DNA of 62,737 nt from an uncultured bacterium (GCA_963727715.1 CAVSGX010000008.1:1-62737); one strand, 5' to 3'; shown: positions 10,658 to 61,990, counted from the first letter of the stretch. Program-made: numbers and translations. The notes: a model not told the origin generated them from the sequence alone.

Positions 10658-11551
10658 TTATATTTTTTCAATAATTCTTAATTTGGCGCTTCTGGCCCGC
10701 GGATTTTCTTTGACTTCTTCTTCAGACGGTACAATGGGTTTTTTGTTTATTTTTTTACCTTCACCATTTTTGTCGCGTTCGTTAAAAAATTGTTTTACTA
10801 TCCTGTCCTCCAAACTATGAAATGAGATAACGGCTAATCGGCCAGATGGGTTGAGCAGTTCAAAACTTTTTTGCACACCTTCTTTCAAACTTCGGATTTC
10901 GTCATTGACGGTGATGCGCAAGGCCTGAAAGGTTTTTGTGGCCGGATGGATTTTCTGATGGTGATAAAATTTCGGCGTCGCTCCTAAAATGATGTCCACA
11001 AGCTCGGATGTTGTCTCAATCGGTTTGAGAGCTCTCTTGCTGACGATAGCCCGAGCGATGCGCCAAGCGAATTGTTCCTCGCCGTAACCTTGCAAAATAG
11101 CTTCCAGATTTTCCTCATCCCAGTTGTTGACGATTTCTCTAGCCGAGAGCTCACCCTCGTCCAAATTTTTTTTGAAAGACATTATCAGTGGTTCGTCTTT
11201 TTGGAAAGAAAATCCCCTACTCGATTCTTCAAACTGATTGGAAGAAAGTCCGATGTCTAAAAGTATCTTGTCTGCTTTTGAAAAACCGGCTGAATTCAAA
11301 ATGGTGTCAATGTTTCGGAAATTACCTTGCAAAAAAATAATTTTAAAACCTTGTGAGAACAAACGTTCCTTGGCTCTAGCCAAAGCATCTTCATCCAAAT
11401 CAATGCCGATGACTTTGACCTGACTGCCAAACTTTTTGCAGACTTCCTCGCTGTGTCCCCCGCCACCCAAAGTCCCATCCACAAAAATGTCACCCTTTTT
11501 GATTTCAAGTCCATCTATCGCTTTTTGTAAAAGAACTGGCTTATGAATCAT
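10658..11551 (-). CDS. rsmH: 16S rRNA (cytosine1402-N4)-methyltransferase
   Basis: 297 aa; HKPVLL...DGTLGGGGHS, DLGLSSNQ signature motifs. Confidence 0.95.
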   Translation of the reverse strand: MIHKPVLLQKAIDGLEIKKGDIFVDGTLGGGGHSEEVCKKFGSQVKVIGIDLDEDALARAKERLFSQGFKIIFLQGNFRNIDTILNSAGFSKADKILLDIGLSSNQFEESSRGFSFQKDEPLIMSFKKNLDEGELSAREIVNNWDEENLEAILQGYGEEQFAWRIARAIVSKRALKPIETTSELVDIILGATPKFYHHQKIHPATKTFQALRITVNDEIRSLKEGVQKSFELLNPSGRLAVISFHSLEDRIVKQFFNERDKNGEGKKINKKPIVPSEEEVKENPRARSAKLRIIEKI

Positions 11552-11674
11552 AAATTTCTAATTATTCTAATTGATCTAATTTCTAGATAATGTCCAAAAC
11601 CTAATATCTAATTTTGTCTATTTGGTTATTGTGATTTATTTAGGTTGATTAGAAATTAGAGTAATTAGGTTAAT

Positions 11675-12109
11675 TTACAACACCCCCACTTGTCCAAGCT
11701 TCTCTGCCAATGTGTCCGCTTGTTTTTCCACCACTTTCTTGTATTCAGTCCAAGTTTTCTCATTCCAAATTTCCAAACGACTGGAAACTCCGATGACCAC
11801 CACTTTGCTTTTCAATCCGGCTCTGTCGCGCAGAAAATCTGGAATGAGAATTCGACCGATGGAATCAATGTCCGCTTCCACCGCGCCGGCAAACATAAAA
11901 CGGTTGAAACTTCGATTATCGGCCTGACCAAGCGAACCCTGCGAAAGTTTTTCTTCAATTTTTTTCCACTCCTTTTGAGTGAAGACAAACAGACACTGAT
12001 CAAGTCCCGGTGTGACGACAATCTTCTTGCCCATCTCGGCCCGAAACTTGGCCGGAAGAGAAATTCTGTTCTTGTCGTCTATACTGTGTGTGTATTCGCC
12101 GATAAGCAT
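11675..12109 (-). CDS. mraZ: transcriptional regulator MraZ
   Basis: 144 aa; duplicated SpoVT/AbrB-like halves with DDKNRISLP and GRILIP motifs. Confidence 0.95.
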   Translation of the reverse strand: MLIGEYTHSIDDKNRISLPAKFRAEMGKKIVVTPGLDQCLFVFTQKEWKKIEEKLSQGSLGQADNRSFNRFMFAGAVEADIDSIGRILIPDFLRDRAGLKSKVVVIGVSSRLEIWNEKTWTEYKKVVEKQADTLAEKLGQVGVL

Positions 12110-12666: not shown

Positions 12667-13623
12667 TTACCCCTCAAGTAGGACAGAACTAATGTTTGAA
12701 TAATAACTCATTGGCGCGCGGAAGCCAATCACTTCTCTCGGTCGGTTGTTTAGGAAGGAATGTATTTCTTGCAATTCTTCCTCAGTGACTGACTCAATAT
12801 CTCTTCGTTTAGGCACAAAACATCTGATCCATCTGTTGGTGTTTTCCACCAGACCTTTTTCCCAAGAATGGTATGGATGTGTAAAATAGATTGGCACTTG
12901 CAGGAGAGTTTCCAACTCTTTCCAACAGGTGAATGCAATATCGTTGTCTGTGGTGATGCTCTTCAATTCAACACCATGGAACAGACGGGAAAGCGCGGCA
13001 CGAATAGTGTCGCGTTTTCTGTTGGGCAGTTTCCTGACCCATGTTCTTTTGGCTTGCCAATCCACAGCAACCAAAAGTACCCACGAACTGTCTTTGGAAA
13101 CGATGAAATCGAGCTCAATGTGTCCTAGACCTTTTCTCTCCGGTCTGACATCAATATACTTCCTGCCATCCTGAATGTGCTTCCAATGATTTCGTTTTCT
13201 CCCACCCTTGTGATTGTTCCAACCCCAAAAAAGCAGGTGGTTTAGACCTCTCGACTCGGCAAATTTGTATATGGCTTTGGCCGAGCAGATGATACCCATT
13301 TCACATTCAAGATACCCGCTAATCTGCTTCGGCGACCAATGATACGGCTTGGTTAATCGTTCCACCACGAATCGACAGAGAAACGGGTCAAGCGCCACTT
13401 TCAGACACTGCTGTTTGGCTCGCCATCTTTTCATTGAAACTTTCTGCTTGGCTTTTTCCGCTTCATACACCCCATTAACACTGTGTTTTTGTATTTCTCT
13501 GCTCACAGTGTTGACACTCCGACCGAGAAATTCGGCAATTTTGCGAATGGCCGAACCGGCGCAATACATCTTTTCAATACAAAACCTCTCTTCAAAAGAC
13601 AAATGATGATATTTGTTTTTCAT
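12667..13623 (-). CDS. IS30 family transposase
   Basis: 318 aa; N-terminal HTH (LSFEERFCIEKMY..GSAIRKIAEFLGRSVNTVSREI) and a DDE region ending HPYHSWEKGLVENTNRWIR. Confidence 0.9.
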   Translation of the reverse strand: MKNKYHHLSFEERFCIEKMYCAGSAIRKIAEFLGRSVNTVSREIQKHSVNGVYEAEKAKQKVSMKRWRAKQQCLKVALDPFLCRFVVERLTKPYHWSPKQISGYLECEMGIICSAKAIYKFAESRGLNHLLFWGWNNHKGGRKRNHWKHIQDGRKYIDVRPERKGLGHIELDFIVSKDSSWVLLVAVDWQAKRTWVRKLPNRKRDTIRAALSRLFHGVELKSITTDNDIAFTCWKELETLLQVPIYFTHPYHSWEKGLVENTNRWIRCFVPKRRDIESVTEEELQEIHSFLNNRPREVIGFRAPMSYYSNISSVLLEG

Positions 13624-13684: not shown

Positions 13685-13696
13685 GCTAGGGGACTC

Positions 13697-14696
13697 CGTT
13701 TCCGCACCCCTCAATTTAGACACTTCATTGAATCTAATAATACCTCTTTTGCTGTCCTAAATCCAAGACATTGACGAGGAATTTCGTTTAAAAACTTTTC
13801 AATTGAACGAAGCTCTTCTTCTGTGACTTCTCTCAAATCTTTTCTCTTTGGAACAAACACCCTGATCCATTTGTTTGTATTTTCAACCAAACCCTTTTCC
13901 CAGGAGTGATATGGGTGACAGAAATATATCGAACATTTTAGTTGTTTTTCCAGTTTCCTCCAACAATTAAATGCGATATCATTGTCTAGTGTAATTGTCT
14001 TGACTGGCATATTACGCAGAGAATCCAAGAAAGCACGCAATACCGTTGCGTGCTTTCTGTTTGGAATTTTGCGAGTGATGGTATCTCTGGAATATCGGTC
14101 AACCAAGACAAATAATGAACAAGCGTTGTGAGATGAGACAATGAAATCTCCCTCCCAGTGTCCAGATCTCTCCATTTTCGGTCTGTCTTCAATGTATTTT
14201 CTCTCATCGATGGCTTTACCGTATCTTTTCTTTTTCCAACCACTTTTCTTGTGGTGTTTTCTCCAAAACAGATATCTTTCCAAACATCTGGAATACACGA
14301 ATTTGTACACCGCTTTAGTTGAGATGTTTTTTCCTTGCAGTTTGAAATACCCTGATATTCTCTCCGGCGACCATCCTTCTTTCAATTTCTCCGGAATGAA
14401 TTTGGACAGTTCTCTGTCCAAAGCAGCTTTCATACACTGCTTCTTGCTTAAATATCTCCTCCAGTATGTTTTGTGGTGAGCTTTCTTGGCTACATACAAA
14501 CCTTTCACTTTCTTTTTCATTTCGTAGGCAATGCATGAATGGTGCCGGCCAAGTTTCTTTCCAATTTTCCTTGCACTCCAACCCTCGGAGAACAAAGCTG
14601 AAATCAAAACTCTTTCCTCGTATGACAAATGTTTAAATGTTTTCATATCACTCAATTATTTCTAACTGAGTGTCTAAATTCAAAGGTTAACTAACA
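13697..14696 (-). mobile_element. IS30-family insertion sequence, lineage B, copy 1 (1000 bp)
   Basis: Ends defined by comparing three copies; imperfect IRs sharing AATTTAGACACT; 3-bp direct repeat CTC (13694..13696 and 14697..14699). Confidence 0.9.
13711..14655 (-). CDS. IS30 family transposase
   Basis: 314 aa; protein identical to the ORF at 28228..29172; HPYHSWEKGLVENTNKWIR motif. Confidence 0.9.
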   Translation of the reverse strand: MSDMKTFKHLSYEERVLISALFSEGWSARKIGKKLGRHHSCIAYEMKKKVKGLYVAKKAHHKTYWRRYLSKKQCMKAALDRELSKFIPEKLKEGWSPERISGYFKLQGKNISTKAVYKFVYSRCLERYLFWRKHHKKSGWKKKRYGKAIDERKYIEDRPKMERSGHWEGDFIVSSHNACSLFVLVDRYSRDTITRKIPNRKHATVLRAFLDSLRNMPVKTITLDNDIAFNCWRKLEKQLKCSIYFCHPYHSWEKGLVENTNKWIRVFVPKRKDLREVTEEELRSIEKFLNEIPRQCLGFRTAKEVLLDSMKCLN

Positions 14697-22050: not shown

Positions 22051-22079
22051 ACCTAGGACAACCTAGGTTTTTTCTTTTT
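22051..22079 (+). terminator. rho-independent terminator
   Basis: CCTAGG-ACAA-CCTAGG then TTTTTTCTTTTT. Confidence 0.65.
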
Positions 22080-22100: not shown

Positions 22101-22315
22101 AAGATTCGGTAATTATGATTTCAGAGACTGCGGAGGCAATTAAAAAAACAACGACGAAGGCGGAGTTGGCGCGAAGCAGTGTTTGACGAGCGGTACTCCG
22201 CGAGGAGTTTGCGAAAGCGCCACGAGTCGAGGAAGATTGTTTTCTTGATTGCCGAGCGAGAGCAAAAGTCCAGCAGGACTTTATGCGTGCTCTGAAATCA
22301 TAATTACTGAATCTT
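22101..22315 (+). repeat. structured intergenic element, copy A (long subtype)
   Basis: 26-bp arms 22101..22126 and 22290..22315 (one G-T pair) enclose a core that is near-identical to 60149..60299 and homologous to 40665..40879 (reverse strand). Confidence 0.9.
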
Positions 22316-22324
22316 GAAATTCTT

Positions 22325-22939
22325 TCATCTTTTCCCATCACAAGTAGAAGTTGCCCACAAGCCGAGACCGACTGATTGCGCGGATTTTTGGTCGGTACGA
22401 AATTTGATTTGATATTTGTACGACAGGCCGAAATATGTGTATTCGTAAGCAAAACCTTCTTTGACTAAATATTCGTCCACAAAAAGTCCGTCATCGCGAA
22501 AAACATAACGCAAAAGCCGGCCGTATTTATCGCGATCAGATTGAGTTGGATCGCTTTGCAAAGTAACTTCTCGTCCGTCCAAAAGCGATTTGGTTTCGTT
22601 TGACGCTTCAACGCCGAAACATTGCACCGGCTTGCGCGGATCAACCGTTTCCGGTGTATCCATACCAAGCAAGCGAATTGTTTCTTCCCTTCCGTCCATC
22701 AAAACAACAATGGTGTCTCCGTCTATCACACGCGAAACAGGAAAAAGTTGTTGATTTTGATTTATTGTCTCTGTTGTGGTTGCTGAAATTATTGTCGGAG
22801 TTACAATTGTCGTTGATTTTATTTGTCCACTTATAGGCGGATGATTTTTATTTTCAAACTCGGCGTTTATGTACAACCAGCAACAAAAAATCAAAAGTAA
22901 AACTAAAAAAATTAGGAAAAAATTTTTCTTAAAATCCAT
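22325..22939 (-). CDS. secreted thermonuclease (staphylococcal nuclease, SNase-like)
   Basis: 204 aa; signal anchor; VIDGDTIVV...RLLGMDTPE...YGRLLRYV SNase motifs. Confidence 0.85.
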   Translation of the reverse strand: MDFKKNFFLIFLVLLLIFCCWLYINAEFENKNHPPISGQIKSTTIVTPTIISATTTETINQNQQLFPVSRVIDGDTIVVLMDGREETIRLLGMDTPETVDPRKPVQCFGVEASNETKSLLDGREVTLQSDPTQSDRDKYGRLLRYVFRDDGLFVDEYLVKEGFAYEYTYFGLSYKYQIKFRTDQKSAQSVGLGLWATSTCDGKR

Positions 22940-26841: not shown

Positions 26842-26904
26842 GGCTATATGCTACTCTCAACCAAAAATCTGTCAAGTTTTGAAAAAATATGGTATATTTT
26901 TTAT

Positions 26905-27348
26905 ATGTCACTCATAACAAACCGCAAAGCCGGATTCAATTACGAAATTTTGGAAAAATACACCGCCGGTGTGGAACTTTTCGGTTTTGAAGTTAAATCT
27001 TTGCAAAAAGGACAGGGTTCTTTGGGCGGAGCACATGTCACAGTCCGCGGTGGTGAGGCTTTCATCATCGGAATGTCAGTTTCCCCTTATCAAACAAACA
27101 ACACGCCGAAAGATTACGACCCGATGCGCAACCGTCGGCTTTTGCTCAACAAAAAAGAAATTTATGAGTTGCAAAAAAGCGAGCAAACCAAAGGCTTGAC
27201 AATTGTCCCTCTTTCGGTGTACAATAAAGGAAGGAAAATCAAGTTGGATATCGCTCTGGTTCGTGGCAAGAAAAAATACGACAAACGTCAAACTCTGAAA
27301 AAGAAGGATGCTATGCGCGATGTCCAGAGGAATTTAAAAGTTCGTTGA
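26905..27348 (+). CDS. smpB: SsrA-binding protein SmpB
   Basis: 147 aa from the ATG at 26905 (the ORF is open from 26848); NRKAGFNYEILEKYTAGVELFGFEVKSL signature. Confidence 0.9.
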   Translation: MSLITNRKAGFNYEILEKYTAGVELFGFEVKSLQKGQGSLGGAHVTVRGGEAFIIGMSVSPYQTNNTPKDYDPMRNRRLLLNKKEIYELQKSEQTKGLTIVPLSVYNKGRKIKLDIALVRGKKKYDKRQTLKKKDAMRDVQRNLKVR

Positions 27349-27377: not shown

Positions 27378-27549
27378 AAAATCCTGGCGAAATCATAAGT
27401 TTTTCGGAGCCTTTCGCAGGAGCTTAGAAAACAACAACGCAGGCGTGAGTATACACGCCGAGGAGATTGTTTTCTTGAGCGACGAGAAGTTCGCTGGTTC
27501 ACCAGAGCCAGACAGATTGCTCAGAAAAACTTGTGATGAGATAGGATTT
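27378..27549 (+). repeat. structured intergenic element, copy B (short subtype)
   Basis: Shares GCCTTTCGCA-GAGCT-AGAAAACAAC...GATTGTTTTCTTGAGCGACGAGAAGTTCGCTGG...CAGACAGATTGC with 61872..61990; the locus-specific arms pair (27392..27409 with 27520..27537, plus outer AAATCCT/AGGATTT). Confidence 0.85.
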
Positions 27550-27563
27550 TGTTTCCTAACATC

Positions 27564-27948
27564 GGGGGTGACAGGTTTTGACATAAAATTTGTATTGCCT
27601 CGGGCAAAGCAGAGCTCCGATAACTCTTTAAACTTTCGGAAAAAATAAGTGTAAAAAACTTATCTAGAGCTATCGTTTCTCCGTTCTACGGAATGAACGA
27701 CTTCGCTTTTTCTTACGCTTCGGCTTAAGAAAGGATTGCCTTCCCAACATCCGATAAGGATGGTTAATCCTCATAAAATTCGGATCCGGATGCTAGCCTG
27801 TCTCGTCTAGCATCTTCAAAATAGAGACTCGCTTTTGTGATGTTTTGTTTGCTTTATAGTCACGAAATCTAAAACCCAGAAACAAACTAAGCTTTGTAGA
27901 TTCGTTTCAATCGATTTTATGGATCCGGCTTCGACGCCGGCACTTCCA
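27564..27948 (+). ncRNA. ssrA: tmRNA (transfer-messenger RNA)
   Basis: 5' GGGGGTGACAGGTTTTGAC; 3' T arm CCGGC-TTCGAC-GCCGG then CACTTCC-A; acceptor GGGGGTG/CACTTCC with G3-U70; candidate tag frame ends ...NDFAFSYASA with TAA at 27726..27728; directly downstream of smpB. Confidence 0.8.
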
Positions 27949-28213
27949 CATCGTTGAACTGTTAGCGTACAAATTGGTCAAATATTGTTGTTTATCAACA
28001 CCTTTGTGCGTTTCTAACCTTTCAGAAATAGACTGTGCTTCGAAAGCCGCTTCTTGAATCGCAAGGAGCGGTTTTTCGGCTACAACATTGAACTTTTGGT
28101 CAATTAGCTGGTGTTTATAACCAAGAGAGGAAAGTATGCCACGCTTCTTGCTTGCAGATGTATTCTTATCCGAAAGACACGAGAACATATTATGTTTAAG
28201 GACAGAAAGACTT

Positions 28214-29213
28214 CGTTTCCGCACCCCTCAATTTAGACACTTCATTGAATCTAATAATACCTCTTTTGCTGTCCTAAATCCAAGACATTGACGAGGAATT
28301 TCGTTTAAAAACTTTTCAATTGAACGAAGCTCTTCTTCTGTGACTTCTCTCAAATCTTTTCTCTTTGGAACAAACACCCTGATCCATTTGTTTGTATTTT
28401 CAACCAAACCCTTTTCCCAGGAGTGATATGGGTGACAGAAATATATCGAACATTTTAGTTGTTTTTCCAGTTTCCTCCAACAATTAAATGCGATATCATT
28501 GTCTAGTGTAATTGTCTTGACTGGCATATTACGCAGAGAATCCAAGAAAGCACGCAATACCGTTGCGTGCTTTCTGTTTGGAATTTTGCGAGTGATGGTA
28601 TCTCTGGAATATCGGTCAACCAAGACAAATAATGAACAAGCGTTGTGAGATGAGACAATGAAATCTCCCTCCCAGTGTCCAGATCTCTCCATTTTCGGTC
28701 TGTCTTCAATGTATTTTCTCTCATCGATGGCTTTACCGTATCTTTTCTTTTTCCAACCACTTTTCTTGTGGTGTTTTCTCCAAAACAGATATCTTTCCAA
28801 ACATCTGGAATACACGAATTTGTACACCGCTTTAGTTGAGATGTTTTTTCCTTGCAGTTTGAAATACCCTGATATTCTCTCCGGCGACCATCCTTCTTTC
28901 AATTTCTCCGGAATGAATTTGGACAGTTCTCTGTCCAAAGCAGCTTTCATACACTGCTTCTTGCTTAAATATCTCCTCCAGTATGTTTTGTGGTGAGCTT
29001 TCTTGGCTACATACAAACCTTTCACTTTCTTTTTCATTTCGTAGGCAATGCATGAATGGTGCCGGCCAAGTTTCTTTCCAATTTTCCTTGCACTCCAACC
29101 CTCGGAGAACAAAGCTGAAATCAAAACTCTTTCCTCGTATGACAAATGTTTAAATGTTTTCATATCACTCAATTATTTCTAACTGAGTGTCTAAATTCAA
29201 AGGTTAACTAACA
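28214..29213 (-). mobile_element. IS30-family insertion sequence, lineage B, copy 2 (1000 bp)
   Basis: Same ends as copies 1 and 3; flanking triplets differ (CTT versus TGA), so there is no target-site duplication. Confidence 0.9.
28228..29172 (-). CDS. IS30 family transposase
   Basis: 314 aa, protein identical to 13711..14655. Confidence 0.9.
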   Translation of the reverse strand: MSDMKTFKHLSYEERVLISALFSEGWSARKIGKKLGRHHSCIAYEMKKKVKGLYVAKKAHHKTYWRRYLSKKQCMKAALDRELSKFIPEKLKEGWSPERISGYFKLQGKNISTKAVYKFVYSRCLERYLFWRKHHKKSGWKKKRYGKAIDERKYIEDRPKMERSGHWEGDFIVSSHNACSLFVLVDRYSRDTITRKIPNRKHATVLRAFLDSLRNMPVKTITLDNDIAFNCWRKLEKQLKCSIYFCHPYHSWEKGLVENTNKWIRVFVPKRKDLREVTEEELRSIEKFLNEIPRQCLGFRTAKEVLLDSMKCLN

Positions 29214-35852: not shown

Positions 35853-36246
35853 ATTTTTTTAGAAGATTATTTATCAAAATAAACCCGAAGACTCCACCAA
35901 CAACATCCATTAATAAATCCGAACCGGTATTAGTCCAATATTTAATTCCATCGGACAAAAATGTCAGGCCAAAATATAACTCGCAAAGTTCCCATAGTAT
36001 GCCCACCACGATGGCACTGATTAGGGCTGTTAACAAAATTTTTCTTTTGCTCCAGTTTTTCAAACTTGACCTGCTGGAACCGATCCAGAAAGCAAATAAA
36101 GCCACGGCCAATCCTCCCAAAAAGTGCAGGATGATATCAACCCACCAAATCGTCCACTGCAAATACAACTTTGATGTAATGACATCAAACAAACCAACCA
36201 AAACCAAAGTGGAGAAAGCTCTTTTGAAAAGTTCTTTCCTGAACAT
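35842..36246 (-). CDS. hypothetical polytopic membrane protein
   Basis: 134 aa, four hydrophobic helices. Confidence 0.5.
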   Translation of the reverse strand: MFRKELFKRAFSTLVLVGLFDVITSKLYLQWTIWWVDIILHFLGGLAVALFAFWIGSSRSSLKNWSKRKILLTALISAIVVGILWELCELYFGLTFLSDGIKYWTNTGSDLLMDVVGGVFGFILINNLLKKYEQ

Positions 36247-36266
36247 GGTTTAATAATATCATGAAA

Positions 36267-36426
36267 GACCTGACAAAAAAAGATTTTTGGAGACTCCGCA
36301 GGTGAGGAGCTGGTTTTGTCAACGACCCGAGCGAAGCGGGGGCTCTTGACAAATCCGAGCCGAGGACAGCCGAGAAAACTCGCTGGAGTTTTCGAGGTTG
36401 CTCCAAAAATCTTTTTTTGTCAGGTC
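36267..36426 (+). repeat. structured intergenic element, copy C (divergent)
   Basis: Perfect 26-bp arms GACCTGACAAAAAAAGATTTTTGGAG (36267..36292) and its complement (36401..36426); the core starts GAGACTCCGCAGG and contains CCGAGC...GAGAAAACTCGCTGG like the other copies. Confidence 0.8.
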
Positions 36427-36435
36427 TAAAAAATT

Positions 36436-36603
36436 AAAAAACCCACCGAAGTGAGATTTTTAATAGAGCTGTATGAGTATTCCCCTAGCTAAAAACTAGG
36501 TGGGTGCCCGCAGATGAATCGATCGGAACGACAAGCGCTCGCCACGAGACAAAAATATGAGGCTCCCTGAAACATAATTAGAAAGAAAATCTCATACAAC
36601 TCT
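36436..36603 (-). ncRNA. orphan structured RNA or leader candidate of about 168 nt, class unassigned
   Basis: Minus-strand promoter TTGATA (36632..36637), 16 nt, TATAAT (36610..36615); 13-bp closing helix 36591..36603 with 36465..36477 (one G-U); terminator CTCAC-UUCG-GUGGG plus a U-run at 36436..36455. Confidence 0.5.
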
Positions 36604-40644: not shown

Positions 40645-40899
40645 GAAATTTCAAAATTTGTTTCGTCACAATTTTTTTGAAAACAGAATAATTTTCTGCT
40701 GAAAATTTTCTTCCTGCTCGGAAATCAAGAAAACAATCAACTCGGACTCGTAGCCTTTTCGCAAACGGCCTCTGCTGAGGCCGCCCAGCTGGTGTACCAG
40801 CTGGGTCGCTGCTTCAGGCTTACTTCGTCCTCGTTGTCGTTTTCTAATTTCCTGCGCAATGTTTCAAAAAATTCGTGACTTCACAGGATTTTGAAATTT
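40645..40899 (-). repeat. structured intergenic element, copy D (long subtype, opposite orientation)
   Basis: Core and inner arms at 40665..40879; outer arms AAATTTCAAAAT pair across an internal loop; fills almost the whole lemA-htpX spacer. Confidence 0.85.
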
Positions 40900-42317: not shown

Positions 42318-43318
42318 TGTTAGTTAACCTTTGAATTTAGACACTCAGTTAGAAATAATTGAGTGATATGAAAACATTTAAACATTTGTCATACGAGGAA
42401 AGAGTTTTGATTTCAGCTTTGTTCTCCGAGGGTTGGAGTGCAAGGAAAATTGGAAAGAAACTTGGCCGGCACCGTTCATGCATTGCCTACGAAATGAAAA
42501 AGAAAGTGAAAGGTTTGTATGTAGCCAAGAAAGCTCACCACAAAACATACTGGAGGAGATATTTAAGCAAGAAGCAGTGTATGAAAGCTGCTTTGGACAG
42601 AGAACTGTCCAAATTCATTCCGGAGAAATTGAAAGAAGGATGGTCGCCGGAGAGAATATCAGGGTATTTCAAACTGCAAGGAAAAAACATCTCAACTAAA
42701 GCGGTGTACAAATTCGTGTATTCCAGATGTTTGGAAAGATATCTGTTTTGGAGAAAACACCACAAAGAAAAGTGGTTGGAAAAAGAAAAGATACGGTAAA
42801 GCCATCGATGAGAGAAAATACATTGAAGACAGACCGAAAATGGAGAGATCTGGACACTGGGAGGGAGATTTCATTGTCTCATCTCACAACGCTTGTTCAT
42901 TATTTGTCTTGGTTGACCGATATTCCAGAGATACCATCACTCGCAAAATTCCAAACAGAAAGCACGCAACGGTATTGCGTGCTTTCTTGGATTCTCTGCG
43001 TAATATGCCAGTCAAGACAATTACACTAGACAATGATATCGCATTTAATTGTTGGAGGAAACTGGAAAAACAACTAAAATGTTCGATATATTTCTGTCAC
43101 CCATATCACTCCTGGGAAAAGGGTTTGGTTGAAAATACAAACAAATGGATCAGGGTGTTTGTTCCAAAGAGAAAAGATTTGAGAGAAGTCACAGAAGAAG
43201 AGCTTCGTTCAATTGAAAAGTTTTTAAACGAAATTCCTCGTCAATGTCTTGGATTTAGGACAGCAAAAGAGGTATTATTAGATTCAATGAAGTGTCTAAA
43301 TTGAGGGGTGCGGAAACG
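42318..43318 (+). mobile_element. IS30-family insertion sequence, lineage B, copy 3 (1001 bp)
   Basis: Same ends as copies 1 and 2; 3-bp direct repeat GTT (42315..42317 and 43319..43321); one extra A compared with the other copies. Confidence 0.9.
42359..43304 (+). pseudogene. IS30 family transposase, frameshifted copy
   Basis: CACAAAGAAAAG here versus CACAAGAAAAG in copies 1 and 2 (extra A at 42774..42776) splits the ORF into 42359..42799 and 42840..43304; also one His-to-Arg change. Confidence 0.85.
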
Positions 43319-43371
43319 GTTACCTCTCCGTTAGAGAGTTTATTACATCTTTGCTTTTTTGTCAAGTACAA

Positions 43372-47098: not shown

Positions 47099-47101
47099 TT
47101 T

Positions 47102-47239
47102 ATCCGCACACCAATTTTGGCATTATTTTTTGTTGCAATGTCAGTATTATTTCAGACATCAATTTTTGTGGTACAACCTGAATTTTATTAATAATTTTCC
47201 AAAAAATAATTGCAACGATGCCAAATTTGGTGTGCGGAT
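47102..47239. repeat. 138-bp element bounded by 22-bp inverted repeats (MITE-like or large hairpin)
   Basis: ATCCGCACACCAATTTTGGCAT (47102..47123) versus ATGCCAAATTTGGTGTGCGGAT (47218..47239); the arm sequences differ at one position (T versus A) over 22 nt; A/T-rich interior. Confidence 0.6.
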
Positions 47240-47299
47240 GAATTATACCACTTGATCAAAAAATCGTCTCCAGAATCAAATATGTAAAATTTTTTCAAC

Positions 47300-47839: not shown

Positions 47840-48863
47840 ATTCCCAAATGTATTAGGACACTCTTGTAAAATAGAGTGATATGAAATTTAAAAATATTTC
47901 GTCGGTTGAGCGGCTGGAAATTTCCATATTAAAATCAAAAGGATATTCCATTCGTGCCATAGCCGAAAAGATGGAGAGAAGCCCGAACACCATCTCGTAC
48001 GAGCTTCGAAAAAACAAAACTGGTGGCAGATACGACCCGAAAAAAGCCGAGGCCAAGTCTCATCTGCGAAAGAGAATGAGAAAACTGCAATGGATGAAAA
48101 TCGAGCAAAACTCGGAACTGAAAAAATACATTGTCGCCGGTCTGCAAAACAAATGGAATCCGGACGAAATCTCAGGAAGGATGAAGCTGGAGAAAAAGCC
48201 GTGGTTTGTTTCCAAAAATTCGATATACCGGTGGCTATATTCAAACAGGGGTCAAAAATACTGTCCGCTTCTGTATTCCAAGCGATACCACCGAAGAAAA
48301 AGAACTGGGTCGAAAAAGAGAACACTCATTCCAAACCGTGTTGATATATCGAAACGATTTCGCGGAGCGGACAACAGAACAAGATATGGACATTGGGAAA
48401 AAGATGCTGTTGTTTCAAGAAAAGGTGTGTCAGCTTCACTGGCTGTGGCGACAGAAAGAAAAAGTCGATTGCTTGAGGCCAGAAAAGTCAAAAATATGTC
48501 ACCGACGGATCATGAAATTGCCACCAGAAAAATGTTGCAAAACAAAAAAGCTCTGAGTATCACCAGAGACAATGGTATTGAAAACATCTATCACGGAGAA
48601 ACACCGACACCATCATTTTTCTGCGAAGCATACTCATCCTGGCAGAAAGGCGGGGTTGAAAATGGCAACAAACTGATCCGAATCTTCTTTCCCAAAGGAA
48701 TTGATTTCAGATTTGTTACCCAGGAAGAAGTTGACCGAGCAGTCGAGACCATCAACAACAAACCAAGAAAAATTCTGAAATACAAAACAGCTCTCGAGGT
48801 CGCGAGAAGCTGTGGTATTATTAACAATATTAAAAGTGAGAGTGTCCTAATTCAGGGTGGAAT
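47840..48863 (+). mobile_element. IS30-family insertion sequence, lineage C (boundaries approximate)
   Basis: Inverted repeats ATTAGGACACTCT at 47852..47864 and 48839..48851, with weaker matches extending outward (ATTCC...). Confidence 0.75.
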
Positions 48864-48867
48864 TTAG
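47881..48867 (+). CDS. IS30 family transposase
   Basis: 328 aa; HTH (LKSKGYSIRAIAEKMERSPNTISYEL) and DDE region with YSSWQKGGVENGNKLIR. Confidence 0.9.
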   Translation: MKFKNISSVERLEISILKSKGYSIRAIAEKMERSPNTISYELRKNKTGGRYDPKKAEAKSHLRKRMRKLQWMKIEQNSELKKYIVAGLQNKWNPDEISGRMKLEKKPWFVSKNSIYRWLYSNRGQKYCPLLYSKRYHRRKRTGSKKRTLIPNRVDISKRFRGADNRTRYGHWEKDAVVSRKGVSASLAVATERKSRLLEARKVKNMSPTDHEIATRKMLQNKKALSITRDNGIENIYHGETPTPSFFCEAYSSWQKGGVENGNKLIRIFFPKGIDFRFVTQEEVDRAVETINNKPRKILKYKTALEVARSCGIINNIKSESVLIQGGI

Positions 48868-51994: not shown

Positions 51995-52040
51995 AATGAA
52001 ATAATTGTATCAAGACCAAGCCCTTTTGTAAATTTTGGAC

Positions 52041-52067
52041 AAACAAAAACCACATACGGGATGTGGC
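52041..52067 (-). terminator. rho-independent terminator
   Basis: CCACAT-CCCGT-ATGTGG then TTTTTGTTT on the minus strand, downstream of 52092..52331. Confidence 0.6.
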
Positions 52068-52091
52068 TTTATTTGCGTGTTCAAAAATGTG

Positions 52092-60072: not shown

Positions 60073-60106
60073 AAGCCTTGGCATTCATGTCAGGCTTTTC
60101 TTTTTA
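60073..60106 (+). terminator. rho-independent terminator
   Basis: AAGCCT...AGGCTT hairpin then TTCTTTTTATTTT. Confidence 0.55.
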
Positions 60107-60122
60107 TTTTGCAAAAAACAAC

Positions 60123-60325
60123 AAAGCCTAGCGGTTGCATTTTCCGAGACTGCGGAGGCAATTAGAAAACAACAACGAAGACGGAGTTGGCGCGAAGCAG
60201 TGTTTGAGCGTAGCGAGTTTGCGAAAGCGCCACGAGTCGAGGACGATTGTTTTCTTGATTGCCGAGCGAGAGCAAAATCGCACCAGCGATTTATGCGTGC
60301 TCGAAAAATGCAACTGCTAGGCTTT
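60123..60325 (+). repeat. structured intergenic element, copy E (long subtype)
   Basis: 26-bp arms 60123..60148 and 60300..60325 (two non-Watson-Crick positions) enclose a core near-identical to copy A. Confidence 0.9.
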
Positions 60326-60356
60326 TCTTTTTGCTAAAAATCACTACACTATAAGT

Positions 60357-61871: not shown

Positions 61872-61990
61872 TTCCGAGAAAGGCCTTTCGCAAGAGCTCA
61901 GAAAACAACCACGGTAATCTGTGGATTGTTTTCTTGAGCGACGAGAAGTTCGCTGGCAGAGCTTTGCCAGACAGATTGCCTTTCGAGGAA
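61872..61990 (+). repeat. structured intergenic element, copy F (short subtype)
   Basis: The core aligns with copy B over its whole length; imperfect outer pairing TTCCGAGAAAGG with CCTTTCGAGGAA. Confidence 0.85.

Follow-up and report, generated by a model that had tools for sequence, protein, structure and literature searches.

ERIC (IRU), Correia (CREE) and RPE repeats lack open reading frames (ORFs), measure 70-260 nt, occur in many copies between genes and form one long hairpin over the whole unit; they vary in size through internal insertions, are present or absent among relatives and possibly affect neighbouring transcripts. As in the present case, RPE reside in a reduced genome and are not known to be spread by any particular mechanism. 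The element studied here shares all of the listed properties and occurs in six copies (A to F) in a 62,737-nt stretch of DNA from an uncultured bacterium (GCA_963727715.1, CAVSGX010000008.1:1-62737); this whole stretch is called the window, and copy A spans 22101-22315. Here, we provide evidence that the six copies are members of an undescribed ORF-less interspersed family confined to the Candidate Phyla Radiation (CPR/Patescibacteria). Their fold, as modelled, is a Y-shaped three-way junction of a closing helix (P1) and two inner helices (P2 and P3). The reading that we rank first, with a probability of roughly 0.45, is a non-autonomous mobile element in which this conserved single-strand fold is the recognised unit.

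ERIC, Correia, RPE and REP-type hairpin repeats are closest in kind to the CPR element, which inverts their logic in having a conserved centre and variable, partly host-derived ends. ERIC, Correia and RPE are described as bounded by terminal inverted repeats that are conserved, with target duplications of TA or a similar sequence in the first two, whereas the ends of the CPR element are copy-specific. The same descriptions set it apart by a core that is conserved over classes of the superphylum and by covarying helices with a clear strand preference. REP/BIME and REPIN-RAYT sequences are likewise extragenic palindromes just past stop codons, with compensated pairing and possible action on mRNA 3' ends. 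However, REP arms are conserved and enzyme-recognised (20-40 nt, with a GTAG foot) and go with a RAYT gene, whereas in the CPR element the arms vary and a core of about 170 nt is conserved; Y1_Tnp (RAYT) is not among the 25 most frequent Pfam families listed for the window or for the 119 ORFs that flank copies.

An undescribed family of the CPR/Patescibacteria

The statement of an earlier note on this DNA that the core matches no known RNA family stands, as Rfam 15 was silent at gathering and E-value thresholds: the gathering scan of the whole window returned only the transfer-messenger RNA (tmRNA) and two tRNAs, and at the E-value level, D, E and three of the expanded copies gave chance-level matches only. 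Literature searches, including literal sequence strings and a term search within one preprint, yielded no description of the family. A tRNA-like nature was rejected as ARAGORN found nothing on the copies, and so was a phage or plasmid origin, with one chance IMG/VR match dismissed by the covariance model (CM) and no blastn match in plasmid or phage collections.

Further copies in other genomes, the object of a CM search proposed in the earlier note, are numerous. Scanning one genome per species for GATTGTTTTCTTGANNNNCGAG gave 80 loci, about 50 of which carry the full element; all of these belong to metagenome-assembled genomes (MAGs) of CPR/Patescibacteria (Saccharibacteria, Paceibacterota, Zambryskibacteria, Minisyncoccia, and a few that are probably mis-binned), and the other loci represent chance matches that fall within genes from other phyla. 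The CM was built from 41 copies, of which 38 came from other genomes, and detects 78 copies in 61 sources, namely the window and 60 fetched loci (cited here by L numbers). The family was thus found in about 30 CPR/Patescibacteria MAGs, commonly with several copies per MAG, and window synteny together with LemA and RelA relatives places the window in the same group of organisms. Cores are 85-98% identical between MAGs of different classes. Within one MAG cores are 98% identical and outer arms unrelated, and nearest neighbours of a copy include both paralogues at 98% and orthologues at 91-98% identity. Typical copies also occur on three contigs (L002, L025, L068) from a MAG that bears the label Nitrospira sp. 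SF2_9; genes flanking these copies are syntenic with Saccharibacteria loci L003 and L011, and the contigs probably represent mis-binned CPR DNA.

All six window copies were located at the places given by the earlier note, and all copies, in the window and elsewhere, are intergenic by our ORF-based gene calls. Coordinates given here take in the closing helix of 13-33 bp. Full-length copy A (22101-22315, + strand; CM score 149.7 bits; minimum free energy (MFE) -96.3 kcal/mol, z -8.6) lies between a small + strand ORF with its terminator (22051-22078) and a convergent SNase-like gene with its stop codon at 22325-22327. The other full-length copies are D (40646-40898, - strand; 142.3 bits; MFE -111.4 kcal/mol, z -12.1), which has the longest P2 tip and sits antisense within the LemA-M48 peptidase spacer, and E (60116-60332, + strand; 161.3 bits; MFE -92.5 kcal/mol, z -7.7), which has 33-nt arms and is placed between a terminator and relA/spoT. 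Copies B (27378-27549, + strand; 72.4 bits; MFE -74.8 kcal/mol, z -7.7), with a reduced P2 tip, and F (61872-61990, + strand; 49.9 bits; MFE -56.9 kcal/mol, z -6.2) are short forms, the latter with near-identical relatives in L011, L056 and L165. The 14-mer GATTGTTTTCTTGA is present without mismatch in A, B, D, E and F. Every copy is one long closed structure, with MFE z values of -6.2 to -12.1 against dinucleotide shuffles, and the closing helices of E, C, D and A are the four longest inverted repeats of the window (I1-I4, in this order).

The CM, a type of model proposed in the earlier note, recovered A, B, D, E and F strongly, and only C weakly (36266-36427, + strand; 11.6 bits, E=0.22; perfect 27-bp P1; MFE -86.6 kcal/mol, z -9.3). 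Judged from its sequence, C is a true relative from a sister subfamily despite this score. It has the architecture of the family, namely a U-run, GAGAC, the UCCGCAGG junction, P2 (GGUUUUGUCAAC/UUGACAAAU), CGAGGAC and P3 (with a GCUG loop), and four close homologues in the element-bearing genomes L020, L026, L032 and L050 show compensatory changes among them. A possible seventh copy, degenerate or minimal (P1 base and P3 only), lies at 52026-52087 on the + strand (10.2 bits, E=0.52); its sequence, UUUUGGAC..CAAAAACCACAU-ACGGG-AUGUGGCUUUAUUUGCGUGUUCAAAAA, bears a resemblance to P3 and the 3' junction that we regard as weak evidence. The six or seven copies make up 1.8% of the window DNA.

Copy B lies between smpB (26848-27348) and the tmRNA gene (27564-27951, by Rfam), occupies nearly the entire smpB-ssrA spacer, leaving 15 nt to the 5' end of the mature tmRNA. 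By this position it would belong to the leader of the tmRNA precursor, provided that its 3' arm contains no promoter, and as part of the leader it would be the best candidate for a sense-transcribed copy in the window.

Four size forms can be distinguished across the family: a minimal form of about 72 nt with P2 cut down to a short hairpin, a short form of 110-130 nt (including B and F), a full form of 165-190 nt (including A, D and E) and an expanded form of 240-256 nt, which has an extra module of about 75 nt (…GCAAGACCUUGAAC…GUGAAAGGUGUACUG…) at five different places in P2 or P3. The module itself (UGAGAAG-hairpin-GCAAGACCUUGAAC-hairpin-GUGAAAGGUGUACUG-hairpin) was seen at L043 6290-6365, L080 3400-3475, L051 230-310 (approximate), and in L025 and L014. 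It always adjoins GAG/GAAG, its last hairpin covaries (CUCC/GGAG, UUCC/GGAA, CUUC/GAAG), it has no Rfam match, and it may itself represent a mobile sub-module.

The predicted fold and its preferred strand

The structure obtained by RNAalifold on a plain MAFFT alignment comprises 46 pairs in seven helices. Compensatory double changes occur in 24 of these predicted pairs, with the caveat that template switching in DNA hairpins can partly yield compensatory change without selection and so inflate covariation. Paired cells amount to 96.4%, against 85.2% in column shuffles and about 45% with the partners slid, and none of 500 shuffles reached any of the five observed pairing measures. In a structure-blind scan of mutual information with average product correction (MI/APC), the top-ranked column pairs are the predicted helices; the scan shows nested helices only and no pseudoknot or tertiary covariation. 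A possible non-Watson-Crick covariation between J2/3 (CAUAG/CAAAG/CAGAG) and J3/1 (GCGUG/GCGGG/GCGAG) was noticed by eye and does not rank high in MI/APC. The view of the earlier note that pairing is kept while sequence changes, beyond simple repetition, is hence borne out with many more copies.

P1 has a conserved base, U4-6-NN-GAC / GUC-NN-A4-6, with 2-4 covarying pairs at NN, and outer 8-25 bp that are copy-specific; its ungapped length has a median of 18 bp, and 94% of pairs are Watson-Crick. Outer P1 ends based on RNAfold were over-extended into spurious pairs and were dropped. In copy A, the 5' arm (22101-22128) pairs with the 3' arm (22287-22315) as inverted repeat I4 (26 nt, 96% complementary), the single non-Watson-Crick position being G.U on the + strand, and the 3' arm ends 9 nt short of the stop codon of the convergent gene. 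In some subfamilies, P1 includes a distal helix and an internal loop that is GA-rich and conserved (5' AAAAUCUCGUCGACUCA / 3' UGAGGAGAAAGAGAUUUU), and the P1 of B likewise contains a GA-rich internal loop (GGCGAAA / UGAUGAGAU). A k-turn or box C/D motif was considered for the loop in distal P1 (UGAUGAG / CGAAA), where the canonical k-turn register does not fit.

P1 is followed by the junction strand J1/2, which corresponds to conserved alignment columns 11-17 and reads UGCGGA in A (22129-22134) and UUGCRCAG in most other copies; its UGC pairs with GCR of J2/3. P2 starts as a nearly invariant 17-bp helix (AAUUAGAAAACAAC/GAUUGUUUUCUUGAUU), in which a U.G pair stands beside a bulged U in 41/41 copies. 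Its strands in A are GGCAAUUAAAAAAACAAC (22135-22152) and GAUUGUUUUCUUGAUUGCC (22235-22253), and the latter holds the 14-mer that five window copies have in common. The earlier note had also correctly paired AATTAGAAAACAAC with GATTGTTTTCTTGATT; in B and F, the outer part of the helix so formed becomes GCTTAG/CTTGAGC. The distal P2 domain (22153-22234 in A) consists of P2b, a conserved GAAGCA...UUUGCGA internal loop (GAAGCA..UUUGCGAAA in A) and a tip hairpin of highly variable length. P2b columns 51-54/121-124 show four pair types, and the replacement of TGGCGC/GCGCCA in A and E by AGCC/GGCT in D was rightly noted before. Tips range from 16 to >100 nt among copies (22180-22206 in A), and insert lengths of 16, 27 and 42 nt had been reported accurately for E, A and D.

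The P3 hairpin has 10 bp, the four apical ones hypervariable, together with an ANCA loop and a bulged A that is fixed. Double changes affect 7 of its 10 pairs, and each of the four apical pairs occurs as 4-5 pair types. In A, P3 is GCAAAAGUCC-AGCA-GGACUUU(A)UGC (22262-22286), with the bulged A at 22283. The 3' hairpins with differing apices and the same bulged A that the earlier note had described, GCAAAAGTCC-AGCA-GGACTTTaTGC in A, GCAAAATCGC-ACCA-GCGATTTaTGC in E and AGAAAATTTTC-AGCA-GAAAATTaTTCT in D, were found as described.

Non-Watson-Crick positions in P1 are more often G.U than A.C on the + strand (34 vs 13, p=0.003), and the + strand folds more stably than its complement in 70 of 73 cores (by 6.5 kcal/mol on average) and in 72 of 73 full elements (9.4 kcal/mol). 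By these measures the folding strand is the one that is labelled + for A, B, C, E and F. Covariation in several helices combined with a strand preference through G.U pairs is the pattern by which structured RNAs are generically recognised, and the element shows it. The active form is modelled as most likely RNA because G.U is preferred, because the U.G, the bulged U and the bulged A are fixed, and because the P2 domain is elaborate and modular. Single-stranded DNA keeps some probability because of the frequent GCGAAGC/GCGTAGC tips and the DNA-level origin of the arms (see below).

In an alternative that involves no RNA, a structure-specific recombinase or HUH nuclease would act on the element as folded single-stranded DNA, comparable to attC sites, REPIN/RAYT or IS200/IS605 ends. 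Integron attC sites, too, are recognised by the structure of one folded strand, with stems that vary, extrahelical bases that are fixed and a central part that is variable and sometimes branched. This matches the finding that only one strand folds well, and stem variation with fixed extrahelical bases is the logic of both attC and IS608. Many P2 tips read GCGAAGC or GCGTAGC, a classic and very stable DNA mini-hairpin, and the lack of a promoter signal and the derivation of arms from host DNA also point to a process at the DNA level. However, the element lacks the RYYYAAC/GTTRRRY boxes (the attC R-box consensus), cassette arrays, intI and REP-like conserved arms; its stem bases are ..AGAC/GTCT.., and its inner sequence is strongly conserved. 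No Y1/HUH or integrase gene was found among the 119 neighbours or the most frequent Pfam families of the window, the association with GC skew expected for lagging-strand-dependent elements is missing, and a long conserved P2 with internal loops and inserted modules exceeds the needs of such enzymes. We therefore consider this explanation improbable.

Insertion sites, orientation and the origin of the closing helix

Presence and absence of the element vary among relatives. The CM and nhmmer found no copy in 558 kb around relA homologues of 80 relatives (45-78% protein identity), a sample that represents a single type of locus and a few kb of flanking sequence per relative. The site of E, which follows the T-tract of the upstream terminator, is empty in the closest relative L081; L024 has a copy in the same topA-relA spacer, inverted. 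The LemA-M48 spacer that contains D measures 1 nt in relatives L163 and L164. Further filled and empty sites are contrasted by L050 vs L020 and L072, by L056 vs L055, and by L011, L074 and L031 vs L003. One orthologous site can carry a minimal, full or C-type copy, or none, and the same spacer was entered independently in both orientations. Older copies are orthologous in two to four genomes, with folds intact and private arms that have compensated changes. Insertion into a pre-existing palindrome such as a terminator loop was rejected for L050, as convergent genes at the empty sites L020 and L072 are only 0-9 nt apart.

Copy E is flanked by a 14-nt direct repeat (AGGCTTTTCTTTTT, 60092-60105 and 60319-60332). 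A target-site duplication is, however, not general: over 70 copies the longest direct repeat in the flanks averages 6.7 nt, identical to the mismatched-pair null (6.7), the only exceptions being E and L056 (11 nt). The absence of an ORF, the many copies and the presence/absence among relatives are typical of classical miniature inverted-repeat transposable elements (MITEs). The conserved terminal inverted repeats of MITEs, which match an IS of the genome, are missing here: only the P1 base of about 7-11 bp (U-run-NN-GAC / GUC-NN-A-run) is common to copies. A described MITE/REP family, which the earlier note had named as one of two findings that would overturn its view, was thus not encountered, with neither conserved long terminal repeats nor a general target-site duplication.

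The outer arms themselves partly derive from the host. In L047, L007 (yebC, …YTNAE*), L077, L072 and L024 (topA, …AKKKK*), the 3' arm reaches over the stop codon into the gene and covers 9-15 nt of coding sequence that is conserved, and therefore in at least these five copies the 5' arm is an inverted copy of the end of the gene. Between L007 and L047, the arms track synonymous differences in the overlapped coding sequence. Overlap of a 5' arm with the end of an upstream gene was never found. As arms copy gene ends, part of P1 was made from host DNA during or after insertion.

Locus-specific sequence next to a conserved scaffold is also known from the HEARO/IscB and TnpB omega-RNAs, which are likewise structured, covarying and multi-copy. 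If the element acted as guide or scaffold in an RNA-guided system (as a TnpB/IscB omega-RNA, IS110 bridge RNA or retron non-coding RNA), with the copy-specific arms as guide or target, this would account for the conserved scaffold adjoining copy-specific flanks and for arms complementary to adjacent host DNA. But the known RNAs adjoin or overlap a nuclease gene and several are in Rfam, whereas no TnpB, IscB, IS110 or reverse transcriptase (RT) ORF lies beside any of 74 copies or in the window, and HEARO and the other Rfam models were silent. In addition, the two copy-specific segments pair with each other and are not single-stranded guides, and the copies are dispersed singly between housekeeping genes. 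This explanation is largely refuted, and we regard it as highly improbable.

A protein gene that co-occurs with the element, suggested in the earlier note, did not emerge among the genes next to copies. These neighbours are housekeeping genes only (dnaE, rny, genes for aminoacyl-tRNA synthetases and S1, yebC, topA, recA, dnaK and others), with the same gene recurring across genomes, and no transposase, RT, TnpB or recombinase is encoded among the 119 flanking ORFs. Orientation relative to these genes is biased. Of 59 scorable copies, 42 have a convergent gene as their 3' neighbour (p=0.0015), and the stop codon of this gene usually follows a few bases past the arm; between co-directional gene pairs, 28 copies are antisense and 9 sense (p=0.0026); and in 50 of 74 loci the opposite strand carries most of the coding sequence. 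A replication-linked orientation was rejected, as no association with GC skew was found (40 vs 34).

These positions would fit a cis-acting RNA element at gene boundaries, with a role like that of REP, ERIC or Correia repeats: a hairpin behind the stop codon that ends or processes transcripts, for example by blocking antisense or read-through transcription, as an RNase III site or through protection of mRNA 3' ends, and that spreads as useful or tolerated. The outer end of the 3' arm lies about 0-6 nt from, or overlaps, the convergent stop codon in 19 of 45 copies (by a strict arm definition; in more if the distal helix is counted). Where the upstream gene is co-directional, its own canonical terminator comes first and the element follows, and P1 as a near-perfect duplex of 18-30 bp is a plausible RNase III or roadblock substrate. 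Yet the tail after P1 is not clearly richer in U than the mirror side (6/8 T in 37% vs 32% of copies, with no difference over the first 12 nt), and a consensus terminator scan of the window detected no terminator at element ends. Moreover, a conserved core of about 170 nt is needless for a terminator or stabiliser, and most host mRNAs would hold the antisense, less stable version. As the primary function, a cis-acting role thus appears rather unlikely.

The element could instead be a multi-copy gene family for a trans-acting structured RNA that serves the cell as a ribonucleoprotein (RNP) component, decoy or ribozyme. P1 would then be an end-protecting terminal helix as in 6S, SRP or Y RNAs, the junction and P2 would form the functional surface, and concerted evolution would maintain copy number and core identity. 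Strong core conservation over very distant CPR lineages (85-98%), the retention of the P2 U.G and bulged U and of the P3 bulged A in all copies, the favoured + strand fold and the persistence of orthologous copies with compensated arms all speak for such a gene; modular expansions resemble those of large RNAs, and convergent placement relative to the next gene is common for small RNA genes. Its expected expression signals are missing, however: -10-like hexamers show no positional peak 5' of the 5' arm when compared with the mirror-side and antisense controls, and no consistent U-tract follows P1. Absence from the loci of 80 relatives is odd for a core cellular RNA, as are presence/absence and opposite orientations within one spacer and the existence of degenerate and half copies (L008; window 52026-52087), and a size range of 72-256 nt speaks against one fixed function. 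We regard a trans-acting RNA gene as unlikely, if still as the alternative that comes next after the mobile element.

Some genes beside elements (in L002, L003, L011, L020, L051, L072 and at 36240-36262 of the window) start 6-8 nt past a TATAAT-like box, which suggests leaderless mRNAs. In L002, L003 and L011 this -10 box lies within the 3' arm of P1, with an inverted copy in the 5' arm.

A proposed mode of spread and its meaning for CPR genomes

For the non-autonomous mobile element that we favour, we propose the following mode of spread. A trans-acting machinery would recognise the conserved fold in single-stranded form, most likely in an RNA transcript and less likely in single-stranded DNA. 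Fold-back (template-switch) copying between the arms, the simplest process, would lengthen the closing helix and keep it near-perfect. Copies would persist chiefly behind stop codons and in antisense, where host transcription is undisturbed. A secondary cis effect of such a large hairpin at a gene end on neighbouring transcripts is likely under this model. This explanation and the others overlap, and the degrees of confidence that we attach to them are not exclusive.

Several observations weigh against mobility. The 119 flanking ORFs include no mobilising enzyme, and an insertion signature is lacking, as a comparison of 70 copies gave no general target-site duplication and terminal repeats are neither long nor conserved. 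The many orthologous copies with intact pairing and compensated arms point to a maintained function rather than to decaying selfish DNA, barring template switching from arm to arm. If RNA is the recognised form, it counts against mobility that most copies have no evident means of being transcribed in the folding orientation (no positioned -10 box; antisense to neighbours), and if it is single-stranded DNA, the elaborate conserved P2 domain and the modular insertions are hard to justify. Finally, core identity within a genome could reflect gene conversion, not recent transposition. More speculatively, the element might stand for a novel kind of mobile structured nucleic acid in CPR bacteria, a Y-shaped RNA or single-stranded DNA module without a transposase of its own or nearby, which obtains its closing helix by fold-back copying and whose junction and P2 form a catalytic or protein-recruiting core (ribozyme or RNP) for propagation or for processing of host transcripts; this extended picture is doubtful.

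The window also contains other repeats and a possible RNA gene. An IS30-like insertion sequence (IS; about 1005 bp, HTH_38 and rve domains) is present three times (13692-14696, 28209-29213 and, inverted, 42318-43319), two copies being intact and identical and the third with a split ORF. One of them lies directly downstream of the tmRNA gene, and diverged transposase paralogues are encoded at 12670-13623 and 47881-48864 (47% and 36% identity). A link between this IS and the element was rejected, as the IS is absent from other element-bearing loci (IS ends were not aligned to the element). Near the second paralogue, an unrelated hairpin (47099-47242) with 25-nt arms that are 92% complementary (TTTATCCGCACACCAATTTTGGCAT / ATGCCAAATTTGGTGTGCGGATGAA) and an AT-rich 94-nt centre may represent a MITE or two paired IS ends. 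The spacer upstream of the ORF at 10658-11551 contains AT-rich inverted repeats at 11553-11675 (26 nt, 85%; 18 nt, 83%). A stretch of about 130-150 nt (36440-36600, - strand) that separates copy C from ndk is non-coding and conserved, being nearly identical to L165 4215-4345 (- strand). It has its own TATAAT-type promoter, a hairpin and T-run terminator and paired ends (GUAUGAG/CUCAUAC), gives chance-level Rfam matches only and is probably an unannotated small RNA gene. Another family of long-hairpin repeats (arms AAAGCCCAAAATCGG / CCGATTTTGGGCTTT, with ATTGCGCAG inside) holds the syntenic position of copy C in L165 (4096-4225) and recurs twice in L080 (4415-4485 and 5986-6055).

CPR/Patescibacteria genomes are tiny and tightly packed, yet the element makes up some 1.8% of the window and is met again in many lineages. 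The CM provides an annotation marker for these genomes that helps to avoid spurious ORFs across repeats, and it also flags recombination-prone sites in MAG assemblies. If the element is an RNA with cellular or self-propagating activity, it would provide a large and well-supported class of structured RNAs for a third of bacterial diversity that is poorly understood. Should it be mobile, its conserved centre and locus-specific, partly host-copied ends, without target duplication or an adjacent enzyme, would represent a mode of spread beyond standard transposon models.

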